Below, one piece after another: positions 48,761 through 52,342 of a DNA stretch of 59,663 nt. The translations under genes were made by a program, and so were the position numbers. The number at the start of each line of letters is the position of its first letter. Within the stretch, counting starts at the first letter, position 1. Origin of the DNA: a virus (Duplodnaviria; Caudoviricetes); IMG/VR virus record IMGVR_UViG_3300031949_000041, positions 1-59,663 of that record. One strand, 5' to 3'. The notes under the pieces were generated by a model that did not search any database, had not been told where the DNA came from, and was given only the letters and a program-made list of their open reading frames with translations.

Positions 48761-49732
48761 ATGGGTGACAAGACCAAGATTCAATGGACCGAAGCCACAT
48801 GGAACCCGACACGTGGCTGTTCTCGAGTCAATCAAGATTGCGACAATTGTTACGCCATGCGTGAAGCGCACCGACATGACCACGTTGGCGGCGCATACGA
48901 AGGACTGACACGCATCGGGAAGCGTGGAGTCGATTGGTCCGGTGTCGTGCGCCCGATTCACGACAAGCTCGACCTGCCGTTACGATGGAAGCGACCGCGC
49001 ATGGTCTTTGTTAACAGCATGTCCGATTTGTTTCACCCATCGCTGTCGAACGAAGAAATCGCTGCAGTGTTCGGCGTGATGTCTGCCTGCCCGCAGCACA
49101 CCTTCCAGGTGCTCACGAAGCGTCCGGAGCGGGCGGCGGAGTGGTTCGGTTGGTTCTCACGCGGGCACGGCAGAGACGACACCGCGGACGTTGCCATCAC
49201 GTGCGCCTTGGGCGTTCACGAGCTGAACCAATACGTCACGCGCAACGACAAGGACGTCGACGACGAACCCGGTGCGTGGGACGATCTGATCGAGAACCCG
49301 CCGGAGTGGCCTCTCCAAAACGTGTGGCTTGGCATCAGTGCAGGCCACCAAAAAGCACTTGACGAATTCACGCCGGAACTGTTGCGCTGTCCTGCAGCGT
49401 TGCATTGGCTGAGTCTCGAGCCTTTGCTGGAAGCACTCGACATCAGCGAATGGTTGCCTAACGATGACCCCGACACAGGGGAAAGTCAGATTCGTTGGGT
49501 TGTCGCCGGTGGAGAAAGCGGCAACGGCGCCCGTGTTTGCGACGTTTCTTGGCTGGAGGAATTGCGCGATGCGTGTGCTTTGGCAAGAGTTCCGTTCTTT
49601 TTGAAACAACTCGGCGCGGTTGCGTCGATGTTGACCGAAGACGGCGGCGGTGAATTGACATTGGCTCACAGAAAGGGCGGTGACATCTACGAATGGCCCG
49701 AATCTTTGCGCGTGCGTGAGTTTCCACAATGA
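48761..49732 (+). CDS. DUF5131 (gp37gp68) protein
   Basis: IQWTEATWNPTRGC......CDNCYA, FVNSMSDLFH, FQVLTKRPER, GGESG, FFLKQLG. Confidence 0.9.
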   Translation: MGDKTKIQWTEATWNPTRGCSRVNQDCDNCYAMREAHRHDHVGGAYEGLTRIGKRGVDWSGVVRPIHDKLDLPLRWKRPRMVFVNSMSDLFHPSLSNEEIAAVFGVMSACPQHTFQVLTKRPERAAEWFGWFSRGHGRDDTADVAITCALGVHELNQYVTRNDKDVDDEPGAWDDLIENPPEWPLQNVWLGISAGHQKALDEFTPELLRCPAALHWLSLEPLLEALDISEWLPNDDPDTGESQIRWVVAGGESGNGARVCDVSWLEELRDACALARVPFFLKQLGAVASMLTEDGGGELTLAHRKGGDIYEWPESLRVREFPQ

Positions 49733-50316
49733 GCAAGACTACGTCGTCAAAACCGGTATCCGAGCTTGTGGTGCCTTCCTCCAGAGTCGTCGTGGGCTCG
49801 GATGCCGGTTCTGGTGACGAAGCCCTGCGCGCAGCTCGAGCCGCAGACCTTGTGATATTTGACATCGATGACACCTTGTCCGACCCGGCGCACAGGTTAC
49901 ATTTGCTCGGCGCCGAAGCACACCGGCATTCTTGCCTCGCCGGTGTCGGTCGTGTCAAGATCGAAACGTTTATGCACCCGGACCAAGTCATCAACGACGC
50001 ACCGATCCAAGCGGCTGTGCGATTCATCGCGTCGTTGCAAATTCCGCAGCATCGGTGGCGATTCCTCACTGCACGATGGCAGCGGCTCGGCGGCGTCACT
50101 AGAGAGTGGCTGCTCCGTCACTTTGGGTGGGAACACGCTATCGGTTACATGCGACCAGACAACGACGACGGGCTATCGCACGAGCTGAAGCTGAAGATCT
50201 TACGCGACAAATTCAAGAAAGAAACGCACCTCGCGCTGTTCGATGACGACGACAAGATGATTGCTGGAGCCCGAAAACTCAACATCGAAGCGTTCAAAGC
50301 GCCTGGTTGCTTTTGA
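49729..50316 (+). CDS. HAD-family phosphatase (PNKP-phosphatase-like)
   Basis: IFDIDDTL (motif I), LTAR (II), K (III), FDDD (IV), MRPDND. Confidence 0.85.
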   Translation: MSKTTSSKPVSELVVPSSRVVVGSDAGSGDEALRAARAADLVIFDIDDTLSDPAHRLHLLGAEAHRHSCLAGVGRVKIETFMHPDQVINDAPIQAAVRFIASLQIPQHRWRFLTARWQRLGGVTREWLLRHFGWEHAIGYMRPDNDDGLSHELKLKILRDKFKKETHLALFDDDDKMIAGARKLNIEAFKAPGCF

Positions 50317-50558
50317 TGGGTCCAATGGCTGTCGTTGTCGAAGCTGTCTCCGTCAATTCAACCTCGAACACGTCTCATGAGACCGTATTGCACATCGACG
50401 GTAAATTGTGGCGTTGTACGCTTGATTGCGGGCACACAATGCATCGCACGCGCATAACGGTACGCCGACACGATGGCTCAATTTGGATTAGAAACGCCCC
50501 ACGACGATTGAAATGCTGGCGATGTGACAGCGCCAGGTATCAAGGAGTGCAGCCATGA
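50316..50558 (+). CDS. Small Cys/His protein
   Basis: LDCGH...CWRC; coupled on both sides. Confidence 0.5.
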   Translation: MGPMAVVVEAVSVNSTSNTSHETVLHIDGKLWRCTLDCGHTMHRTRITVRRHDGSIWIRNAPRRLKCWRCDSARYQGVQP

Positions 50559-51631
50559 TACGTGGCGCTTTCAACGTCGTGTTGGATGCACAGTGGGGCA
50601 GTGGTGGGAAGGGCAAACTCGCTGCGTTCTTGGCTCACGAATACAACATAAAAAACGCATCTGCCGCGAACACACCGAACGCCGGCCACACTGTCGTGTC
50701 GAATGGTCGGCGCATCGTCTACAAAGTATTGCCGTCTGCTTCGTTCGAATCGGGTGTTGTGTGTTGGCTCGCACCCGGTAGTGTTTTTTCGTATGCACGT
50801 CTACGACAGGAAATGGTCGAAAACACACAACGTGTGCGCATCCACGAACGAGCCTGTGTGGTACAAGACCGGCACGTCGAACTCGAGAGTCTGCGCCTGC
50901 GCAAGATCGCAAGTACAATGCAAGGTTCGACCGCAGCCGTCATCGACAAAATGATGCGCGACTCGGCGACGAACGTGCTCGCCAAGAACACCTGCCCCGA
51001 GTTGTGTCTCACCGGCGCTCGTTTTCGAACCAAGGTACAAGACAAACTCGACAACGGGTATTGGTTGCATGAGATTTGTCAAGGGTACGCTCTCAGCCTC
51101 GACCACGGCAACGACTGGCCACACTGTACGAGCCGCAATTGCACAACACAGGCCGCGCTCGACACCATGGGCGTGCCTCCGAAGTTACTTGGTGATGTTT
51201 ACCTCAACGTGCGCCCGTTCCCTATTCGAGTCGGTTCCATCGACAGGAAAGTATACGGCAACGGCCATTCTGGCGACTGGTACAGTGACCAATGTGAATT
51301 ACAGTGGAAAGATGTGTCCGATAAAGCCGGTATGCCATACGAAGAAGCTATTCAGCTCATGGAGCGCGAACGTACAACTGTGACGAGGCGGATTCGACGT
51401 GTCGCCACGATGAGTTGGGTTAATCTGCGCGATGCTGCGCGCACGGTCGGTGCGACCAAACTCGTACTTAATTTCGCGCAGTACATCGACTGGAAAGACC
51501 ACAGCGTGCGCAGTGGGGGCCGACTGAGCAAACGCACGCGGGCTTTCGTCACCAAGATGGAAGACACCACAAATCTCAAAGTTGTGCTCGTTGGAACAGG
51601 CGAAGACCGCGACGATTTTGTGTGGCTCTAA
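50555..51631 (+). CDS. purZ: PurZ-like N6-succino-2-amino-dAMP synthetase (adenylosuccinate synthetase family)
   Basis: DAQWGSGGKGK with Ser in place of the PurA Asp (GDEGKGK); NAGHT; CQGYALS; PIRV; TTVT; LNFAQY in place of TKLD. Confidence 0.85.
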   Translation: MIRGAFNVVLDAQWGSGGKGKLAAFLAHEYNIKNASAANTPNAGHTVVSNGRRIVYKVLPSASFESGVVCWLAPGSVFSYARLRQEMVENTQRVRIHERACVVQDRHVELESLRLRKIASTMQGSTAAVIDKMMRDSATNVLAKNTCPELCLTGARFRTKVQDKLDNGYWLHEICQGYALSLDHGNDWPHCTSRNCTTQAALDTMGVPPKLLGDVYLNVRPFPIRVGSIDRKVYGNGHSGDWYSDQCELQWKDVSDKAGMPYEEAIQLMERERTTVTRRIRRVATMSWVNLRDAARTVGATKLVLNFAQYIDWKDHSVRSGGRLSKRTRAFVTKMEDTTNLKVVLVGTGEDRDDFVWL

Positions 51632-51646
51632 CTGGAGGAAAGGCCG

Positions 51647-52342
51647 ATGTCCAAATTCAACGAAGAAATTGACCAACTATACGAACGCGCTCGGCTCTTG
51701 TTTTGGCGCAAGAATGCGTCATATGGGACTGCCAACGTTGCCGAAGGTGGGCTGCGTGCTGTCGTTGCACGCTTGACAGACAAGGTGCATCGTGCGGCCA
51801 ACGTCGCAGAATCGAGTGGAGACTCCGTCGAGGTGATGCTCGACACAGCGCTCGACATCGCCAACTATGGCATCATTCTGGCTGCGCTCGCCACCGGCAA
51901 ATGGCCCGATCACGATGACCGTCGATCGCTGTTGGTGACTGGCAAGCCCGACCACATCCGCCGGCCAGCTCGTCCAGGCGACGTCGGATTCGATCTGTGC
52001 GCTGCCACCGATCACAGCCTCCCACCACACGAATTGTATTATGTACCGACCGGCGTTAGTGTGTTGTGTCCACGCGGCATGTGGTGTCGCATCGTTGGCC
52101 GCTCGAGTTTGGCGCGCAAGCGACGCGTGTTGTGCGTCGAAGGCATCATCGACGGCGACTACACCGGCGAGTTAGAAGTCGGGTGTCTCAACCTGACCGA
52201 CAAGTATGTCTTCATCAAGGCCGGCGAACGTATCGCCCAAGTCATTTTTTGCCCGGCGCTCGTACCGGAGATGACACACGTTGACGAATTGCCTAATACC
52301 GAGCGCGGCGCCAGCGGGTTCGGCTCGACGGGGCATTCATGA
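51647..52342 (+). CDS. dut: DUF1599/Nmad1-like domain fused to trimeric dUTPase
   Basis: N-term RKNASYG...RLTDKVHR...DTALDIANYGII; C-term GFDL, GRSS, GIIDGDYTGE, RIAQ, RGASGFGSTG. Confidence 0.85.
   Translation: MSKFNEEIDQLYERARLLFWRKNASYGTANVAEGGLRAVVARLTDKVHRAANVAESSGDSVEVMLDTALDIANYGIILAALATGKWPDHDDRRSLLVTGKPDHIRRPARPGDVGFDLCAATDHSLPPHELYYVPTGVSVLCPRGMWCRIVGRSSLARKRRVLCVEGIIDGDYTGELEVGCLNLTDKYVFIKAGERIAQVIFCPALVPEMTHVDELPNTERGASGFGSTGHS

Follow-up and report, generated by a model that had tools for sequence, protein, structure and literature searches.

How could a phage with a PurZ-type synthase make DNA that contains 2-aminoadenine (Z) when none of the usual helper enzymes can be recognised beside it? 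This question is raised by the IMG/VR virus record IMGVR_UViG_3300031949_000041 (Duplodnaviria; Caudoviricetes), a linear record of 59,663 bp with a CheckV completeness of ~82%, which in its entirety forms the window analysed here. Its purZ-like gene is preceded by a gene for a HAD-superfamily phosphatase and followed by a gene that fuses a DUF1599/Nmad1-like domain to a trimeric dUTPase-fold (Dut) domain. We consider it fairly probable that this module makes dZTP, the 2-aminoadenine nucleotide, and depletes dATP, and that it does so with parts of both published Z systems together with new ones. The gene set, its residue signatures, its recurrence and its placement in clades are demonstrated in the following sections.

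The PurZ-type synthase and its residue signature

The window synthase contains an adenylosuccinate-synthetase domain, identified by Pfam and by PDB matches to both PurZ and PurA, and its best solved relatives are PurZ of phiVC8 (4.6e-35) and PurZ of S-2L (2.9e-29), followed by archaeal PurA (~1e-25). Residue roles in this family are described in the metaGPA preprint (bioRxiv 10.1101/2025.10.22.683976). The roles given are a Ser in place of an Asp, contacts to dGMP's 2-amino group, and an adenine-stacking pair (F295/Y298 in phiVC8) that separates PurZ from the GTP-type PurZ0. The window protein follows PurZ at each of these sites. The catalytic Asp13 of PurA is replaced by Ser (S16, equivalent to phiVC8 S14). 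Of 132 aligned homologues, 130 likewise have Ser here and two have gaps. The residues that contact the 2-amino group are kept as W14, an aromatic residue at the site of phiVC8 F12, and T274 (phiVC8 T262), and the ATP-stacking pair is kept as F307/Y310. At the positions of that pair the PurZ0 references Goodman and Litotes have M/N and Q/A. The specificity residues are invariant or near-invariant in 32 sequences around the window's position in the tree. In tblastn comparisons the window protein matched ZP6 PurZ at 2e-49 and the PurZ0 references at 2.5e-11 (Goodman) and 1.4e-7.

An exhaustive profile search of 50%-identity clusters returned 3432 relatives at E<=0.001, of which 240 reached E<=1e-30. 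When viral contigs were scanned with the window PurZ as single query, no matches were obtained, an alignment of clade members being required for that purpose. We built a FastTree phylogeny of 132 rows, comprising the window protein, 120 of the best 150 hits (320-420 aa), eight phage references and two IMG/VR relatives. This is a quick tree, rooted on the two PurZ0 references, free of an archaeal outgroup and biased in its sampling towards the window. Within it, six characterised or annotated PurZ references fall in a 9-row clade, which is itself part of a group of 70 rows, and the window protein lies in the sister group of 52 rows (support 96), within a 37-row clade (support 99). By its residue signature the window synthase is therefore an ATP-type PurZ, but in this tree it falls outside the clade of assayed enzymes. 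Viral metagenomes hold a diversity of PurZ-family genes far beyond that of the characterised ones.

Some homologues in the search are unusually long. Eleven of them (P0039, P0043, P0046, P0047, P0052, P0064, P0066, P0078, P0096, P0097 and P0133) measure 734-1197 aa, and their match to PurZ is split into two or three stretches by inserts of ~400 aa. These inserts look like inteins or homing-endonuclease insertions in the purZ genes.

The fusion protein, the HAD phosphatase and the missing helpers

The dUTPase half of the fusion protein is the part that bears most directly on the question. In the PurZ0 phages Ghobes and Wayne, the Dut-like enzyme DutZ converts dATP, dGTP and dUTP to their monophosphates, favouring dATP approximately tenfold over dGTP (PMC12884076, NAR, February 2026). 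According to the same source, dutZ is present in 98 of 98 surveyed PurZ0 genomes, 85 of which also carry the NDT-like dAMP hydrolase/transferase DmtZ (fused to DutZ in 77 of the 85), and PurZ phages mostly carry DatZ plus MazZ or DUF550. The metaGPA preprint agrees for Wayne-like phages. A first-pass annotation of the locus had taken the dUTPase half for an ordinary passenger. We revise that view because DutZ hydrolyses dATP and dGTP (PMC12884076) and because the window Dut appears to group with the Duts of PurZ0 phages.

This grouping is seen in several comparisons. The best phage matches of the window Dut, among 2014 matching phage records, come from Microbacterium, Micrococcus and Arthrobacter phages (46-48% identity), and with the Dut of Goodman, a PurZ0 phage, the identity is 46%. 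In Goodman and Litotes, the two genomes inspected, DNA polymerase I and PurZ0 are followed by further genes and then by Dut. Alignments show all five dUTPase motifs in the window domain. A 59-row IQ-TREE phylogeny (quick search, SH-aLRT only, small outgroup set) resolved a 33-row clade (SH-aLRT 87) that holds the window Dut, 19 of 21 PurZ-linked Duts, all fusions, Goodman and Litotes, with cellular-type Duts placed elsewhere; the window sits within a 14-row subclade (support 96) in which nearly all members are fusion proteins. In the column that precedes the motif I core (D112 in the window, GDVGFDL), 29 of the 29 sequences of the PurZ-linked clade set have Asp, and 21 other Duts have Ala (17) or Ser (4). 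A Gly for Asp in motif III was considered as a further DutZ signature and rejected, as the window keeps the Asp (D171). The DmtZ-DutZ fusion of Litotes was matched by tblastn over residues 76-306 of 307 at 30% identity. The domain fused to the window Dut is all-helical in its model, and the alpha/beta NDT fold of DmtZ is thus not the fusion partner here. Since the window Dut appears to group with DutZ-type enzymes, it becomes the first candidate for the roles of both MazZ and DatZ.

The N-terminal 100 aa of the fusion protein match a single Pfam family, DUF1599 (PF07659), at E 0.0038 and with 18 bits against a cut-off of 25. We therefore examined the family by transitivity: when 15 relatives of the domain were aligned, nine matched DUF1599 (E<=0.01; best 2.5e-10) and no other family was matched. 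The 15 relatives share the motifs K-N-x-x-Y-G, R-x-x-D-K-x-x-R and D-x-x-x-D-x-x-N-Y, and seven residues, all polar or charged, are invariant (R42, D45, K46, R49, D66, D70 and Y74). An AlphaFold model of the domain is a helical bundle with a predicted local distance difference test (pLDDT) score of 86.6, and its top fold matches in BFVD are Nmad1 proteins (template modelling (TM) scores 0.65-0.81). The identification as Nmad1, already proposed in the first-pass annotation, holds on these two grounds of family transitivity and fold. Compared with DUF1599/Nmad1 proteins in general, the window domain has the same motif pattern and BFVD fold but scores below the Pfam cut-off, is fused to a dUTPase and is linked to PurZ. 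The family was named for its association with nucleotide-modification genes.

The model also suggests a MazG-like fold for this domain. At rank 40 in BFVD stands an NTP pyrophosphohydrolase of MazZ type from Ochrobactrum OH, a PurZ phage (TM 0.59/0.61); the best VIA Z score was 7.5 (2p06), which is at noise level for helical models. We considered whether DUF1599 is related to DUF5664, MazZ or Litotes gp49 and set the idea aside, since hhalign with single-sequence templates, a comparison of low sensitivity, gave no relationship. Judged from listings, no publication was found that assigns a function to DUF1599 or Nmad1 or that links PurZ with DUF1599, Nmad1 or DUF5131, and a fusion of DUF1599 to a trimeric dUTPase was not found in print.

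The HAD protein keeps motifs I-IV of its superfamily (DxDxT, T/S, K and DD) intact. D45, D47, T49, K154 and D172-174 are invariant in four of four sequences, and the motif II residue T114 is Ser in the relative on viral contig L007. Its Pfam scores lie below the cut-offs, with 23.5 bits against 27.6 for HAD_PNKP (PF25109) and 19.2 bits for Hydrolase. A homologous-protein search with the window HAD found only itself, and a PDB sequence search returned chance hits. Its Atlas neighbours are HAD_PNKP clusters (0.93-0.94), one of which, at 0.93, carries a T5 dNMPase family, to be taken as a lead only. In searches with a hidden Markov model, homologues were found only directly upstream of PurZ, on viral contigs L007, L008 and L054. 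On two of these contigs (L007:2348-3064 and L008:6206-6811) the HAD protein has a Cys-rich C-terminal extension, and the window has a separate open reading frame (ORF) with four Cys instead. The small ORF and the extension may represent a zinc-ribbon module that is split in one case and fused in the other.

The helper genes of characterised Z phages are not recognisable in the window. That DatZ, MazZ/DUF550 and DpoZ are absent had been noted from the sequence and is borne out by six-frame searches and by tblastn. No six-frame match was obtained in the window for HD (PF01966), MazG (PF03819), DUF550 (PF04447) or DUF5664 (PF18909), nor for DNA_pol_A, DNA_pol_B or Prim-Pol. The DUF550 negative is a weak one, as PF04447 was silent in 14 of 14 control genomes, and for this reason reference proteins were searched in addition: five DatZ, four MazZ, one DUF5664-DUF550 and one DpoZ protein (from ZP6, Bm1, phiVC8, S-2L and SH-Ab 15497) gave nothing below E 0.026 by tblastn against the window. 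Six-frame searches of four related records likewise found no HD domain and, with PolA as the only polymerase family searched there, no PolA domain. The published DutZ concept largely answers the absence of DatZ and MazZ.

Recurrence, gene layout and neighbourhood

The first-pass annotation had left the recurrence of the gene association as a point to be checked. The core does recur, with HAD, PurZ and fusion genes present in the window's order on viral contigs L007, L008 and L054, whose PurZ proteins are 38-50% identical to that of the window. For DUF5131 and for the small Cys ORF tblastn gave matches at 0 of 79 loci each, and neither is a conserved part of the module. DUF5131, whose coupling with HAD was seen in no other phage, probably does not belong to the Z module. 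The fusion architecture has eight further full-length members (43-54% identity). PurZ stands directly before the fusion on the short metagenome contigs L111 and L112, on L110 the 428 nt that precede the fusion hold no match to PurZ, and L009 begins inside the fusion gene, so that six of the seven fusions with visible upstream sequence follow PurZ. On L010 and L096 PurZ is followed by a free DUF1599-like gene and then by Dut. A scan of genome contigs with the fusion alignment returned three loci in metagenome-assembled genomes, with free DUF1599-like domains only and no fusion. From these arrangements an accessory role of the HAD and DUF1599 parts as conserved partners of PurZ is plausible.

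To place the module among other PurZ loci we surveyed same-strand ORFs within 4 kb of PurZ at 87 loci, namely 77 from IMG/VR (two exact duplicates dropped), L010, eight reference phages and the window. PolA was found near PurZ at 36 loci, Dut at 21 and DatZ at 14, and none of the three at 40. Dut and DatZ occur together at a single locus.

That locus, L083 (an IMG/VR contig of 27.9 kb), also has a DpoZ-like PolA and may be intermediate between the two helper sets. Many of the homologues closest to the window PurZ (42-49% identity) lie on large contigs of 77-436 kb, some of jumbo-phage size (L029-L037, L040-L044, L051, L053, L057, L060 and L106); these loci have no Dut, DatZ or PolA within 4-7 kb, and their common neighbours include a ThyX-domain protein. 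A second type of neighbourhood, at 18 loci (L058, L061-L073, L088 and others), has a gp32-like single-stranded DNA-binding protein upstream of purZ and, directly after it, an AAA_33 kinase-like protein, then a DnaB helicase and a primase, with Dut in 7-8 of the 18. Two of the four related records, G002 and G004, are classed as provirus, and G002 has a tyrosine integrase ~2.5 kb upstream of the module.

The layout of the cluster in the window was re-checked against the ORF list, and the five clustered ORFs lie on the plus strand where the first-pass annotation had put them (Table 1). The junctions are likewise as described there: an ATGA overlap between the DUF5131 and HAD genes, TGATG between HAD and the small ORF, ATGA between the small ORF and PurZ, and a 15-nt gap between PurZ and the fusion gene, within which we find GGAGGA. 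The small Cys/His ORF thus has translational-coupling overlaps on both sides; it matched no family in Pfam, PHROG or NCBIfam searches. A sixth ORF, of 105 aa, is coupled to the fusion gene through another ATGA overlap and has no match among related PurZ loci.

Table 1. Features of the purZ gene cluster, with positions in the window
Feature	Position	Strand	Basis
DUF5131 protein	48761-49732	+	Pfam PF07505, 4.9e-72
HAD-superfamily phosphatase, T4 Pnkp 3'-phosphatase / class IIIB type	49729-50316	+	PHROG 415, 3.5e-21
83-aa Cys/His ORF, CxxxC...CxxC spacing	50316-50558, or TTG start at 50307	+	ORF call
PurZ-type succino-amino-deoxyadenylate synthase, ATP type by signature	50555-51631	+	Pfam Adenylsucc_synt PF00709, 3.4e-33
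Fusion protein, 231 aa	51647-52342	+	DUF1599/Nmad1-like N-terminus and dUTPase C-terminus
DUF1599/Nmad1-like all-alpha domain, N-terminal in fusion	51647-51946	+	Pfam DUF1599, E 0.0038
Trimeric dUTPase-fold domain, DutZ-like, C-terminal in fusion	51947-52342	+	Pfam PF00692, 1.5e-35, residues 103-229
105-aa ORF	52339-52656	+	PHROG 1123, 3.3e-11; no Pfam match

Upstream of the cluster, Pfam identifies genes for RecT and a PD-(D/E)XK nuclease. A 592-aa ORF in the early region (43917-45695, plus strand) has no Pfam match and only PHROG 1362, a group of unknown function, and is a candidate if the phage has a replication protein of its own. The first 11,500 positions (1-11500) have a G+C content of 0.62-0.69, compared with 0.54-0.61 in the middle of the record; the sole family there is a pectate-lyase-like tail protein (7294-9264), and no host genes were recognisable. 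ORFs at the right end (54960-59468) match no Pfam family. No tRNA and no tyrosine integrase were found in the window, and we make no claim that the record is a prophage.

A proposed route and competing readings

In the route that we propose, the Dut domain would act like DutZ and convert dGTP to dGMP, the substrate of PurZ, and dATP to dAMP, which would remove the competitor; it would also act on dUTP. PurZ would join dGMP to aspartate with ATP, yielding N6-succino-2-amino-dAMP, from which host PurB and host kinases would complete the path to dZTP. The HAD enzyme would dephosphorylate a monophosphate, most likely dAMP, and so block the rebuilding of dATP by host kinases, the role that DmtZ or DatZ has in known systems; dAMP as its target is suggested by its conserved position and by analogy with DmtZ and DatZ. 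The DUF1599 domain would be a second nucleotide-binding module, MazG-like and all-alpha, at the place that MazZ takes after purZ. With no polymerase encoded by the phage, Z would be inserted by the replicase of the host, and substitution may be partial.

This arrangement resembles both published systems and differs from each. As in the PurZ0/DutZ/DmtZ system (with DUF5664-1 and DpoZ-1) of Ghobes (Gordonia) and Wayne (Arthrobacter), a Dut-fold enzyme would replace DatZ and MazZ, and the Dut is fused N-terminally to a second domain, as it often is to a nucleotide-handling domain in that system (PMC12884076). Unlike that system, the window has an ATP-type PurZ signature, with F307 and Y310 kept, rather than PurZ0; its fused domain is an all-alpha DUF1599 rather than an alpha/beta NDT-like DmtZ; and it adds a HAD phosphatase and is without DpoZ or another polymerase. 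With the canonical PurZ-MazZ-DatZ(-DpoZ) clusters of phiVC8, S-2L, ZP6, Burkholderia phage Bm1 and Acinetobacter phage SH-Ab 15497 it shares the PurZ specificity residues and the packing of helpers around purZ, which in the canonical reference phages follow the order DpoZ-PurZ-MazZ-DatZ. It differs from them in having no HD-type DatZ, no MazG/DUF550-type MazZ and no PolA, in a PurZ identity of just 30-39%, and in the position of its PurZ, which is not in the 9-row clade to which all six references belong. The concept of DutZ as a substitute for DatZ and MazZ is already published (PMC12884076). What is new is an ATP-type PurZ together with a DutZ-like enzyme, the DUF1599::Dut fusion, a conserved HAD partner and the lack of a phage polymerase.

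Several observations weigh against this reading. The window PurZ scores 198.1 bits on its top-scoring model, NCBIfam NF038379, whose cut-off is 300, and we therefore file it as PurZ-type outside the characterised clade and not as an equivalog; the assayed PurZ enzymes all fall in the 70-row sister group and none in the window's 52-row group. The window Dut passes the ordinary dut model TIGR00576 (113.6 bits, above cut-off) with all five motifs kept, and could simply be a dUTPase. The joint Dut clade has moderate support (SH-aLRT 87-92, without bootstrap), the set of non-linked Duts is small (21 rows, nine of them near-identical), and the assayed DutZ enzymes of Ghobes and Wayne are represented in the comparison by the stand-ins Goodman and Litotes, the latter a congener of Wayne. 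For the DUF1599 domain, Foldseek against the PDB gave no match at E<=1e-3, the recurring AF_0060 (2p06), HisE, DCTPP1 and MazG folds (TM 0.5-0.74) being at chance level for helical bundles, and hhalign of the DUF1599 profile with S-2L MazZ and the SH-Ab DUF5664-DUF550 protein gave a probability below 1%. HAD homologues were seen on four contigs only, and the nearest solved fold of the HAD model (pLDDT 67) is the T4 Pnkp 3'-phosphatase (5uj0, E 2.2e-4). The T4 Pnkp phosphatase is a 3'-phosphatase of nucleic-acid ends and not a 5'-nucleotidase. The window HAD shares its DxDxT core and has it as best fold, but lacks the kinase domain, scores below the Pfam cut-off and lies directly upstream of purZ. 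Canonical datZ and mazZ were not found in the record, which at ~82% completeness may lack a part that holds them. The window also encodes a DNA amino-methyltransferase with a GNPPY motif (38943-39542, plus strand; PHROG 799 at 2.4e-26), whose target in a phage predicted to make Z-DNA could be A or Z. Finally, all enzymatic activities, the substrate of the HAD enzyme, the role of DUF1599 and the presence of Z in the phage DNA are points that we infer.

Some of these observations can be read in other ways. In the version of the first-pass annotation, which we regard as unlikely, Dut is an ordinary dUTPase, DUF1599 is a non-orthologous MazZ that yields dGMP from dGTP, and a non-orthologous DatZ, for the removal of adenine nucleotides, is seen in the HAD enzyme. 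DUF1599-like genes do lie directly after purZ, the usual position of MazZ, on L010 and L096, the DUF1599 fold is weakly of the MazG-type all-alpha kind, HAD is conserved upstream of PurZ, and the dut model is passed. This division of roles sits poorly with the published DutZ, a single enzyme that performs both hydrolyses (PMC12884076) and with whose type the window Dut appears to group, and with the lack of any link between the DUF1599 and MazZ sequences in hhalign. By general HAD chemistry, moreover, one would not expect a phosphomonoesterase of this superfamily to carry out the cleavage of dATP that the HD enzyme DatZ performs. The fold of the HAD enzyme, closest to the T4 Pnkp 3'-phosphatase, and the label of PHROG 415 as polynucleotide kinase would agree with a loose island of nucleotide-metabolism genes. 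There, some dZ would arise through host enzymes, with low or partial substitution, the fusion would be a house-cleaning dUTPase, the HAD enzyme would serve DNA or RNA repair as an end-healing 3'-phosphatase, and adjacency would reflect shared early expression only. The recombination genes nearby (RecT and the PD-(D/E)XK nuclease), the lack of a polymerase and of DatZ, and the 40 of 87 PurZ loci without PolA, Dut or DatZ within 4 kb also fit such an island. We nevertheless judge it improbable, to much the same degree as the preceding version, since gene order and tight coupling recur at just 38-50% PurZ identity, Dut and DatZ are nearly mutually exclusive beside PurZ, and the window Dut has a signature residue, and by the quick tree its clade, in common with PurZ-linked Duts.

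Very improbable, in our estimate, is a PurZ-like enzyme with another substrate or product, which would lead to a different purine modification or only to altered nucleotide pools. The 52-row group contains no assayed enzyme, the score lies below the NCBIfam PurZ cut-off, and Trp stands at position 14, a Phe in phiVC8; yet the five specificity residues are retained or exchanged conservatively, with little or no variation in 32 sequences, and the best profile and structure matches are to PurZ. The synthesis of dZTP with depletion of dATP thus remains the reading that we prefer. A bolder form of it, tentative and on balance doubtful to us, is that the module represents a third, independently assembled Z-DNA route in polymerase-less phages, one relative of which has an integrase. 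An ATP-type PurZ outside the characterised clade would here be combined with a bifunctional DUF1599::DutZ and a dAMP-directed HAD enzyme, DUF1599/Nmad1, so far without an assigned role, would be a dNTP-hydrolysing family of all-alpha enzymes that feeds dGMP to PurZ, and the host replicase would write Z after induction. If this were true, it would give Nmad1 its first function, and Z genomes would need neither a dedicated polymerase nor an HD dATPase.

Phages with Z-DNA resist many restriction enzymes, and the Z pathway is used in synthetic biology. Beside the two known sets of helpers, one of DatZ and MazZ and the other of DutZ and DmtZ, the window module suggests a third. If the roles proposed here hold, the widespread DUF1599/Nmad1 family would for the first time have a function open to testing, the argument that Z pathways were assembled convergently would be extended, and the module would amount to a compact three-gene cassette for the incorporation of Z by a host replicase.

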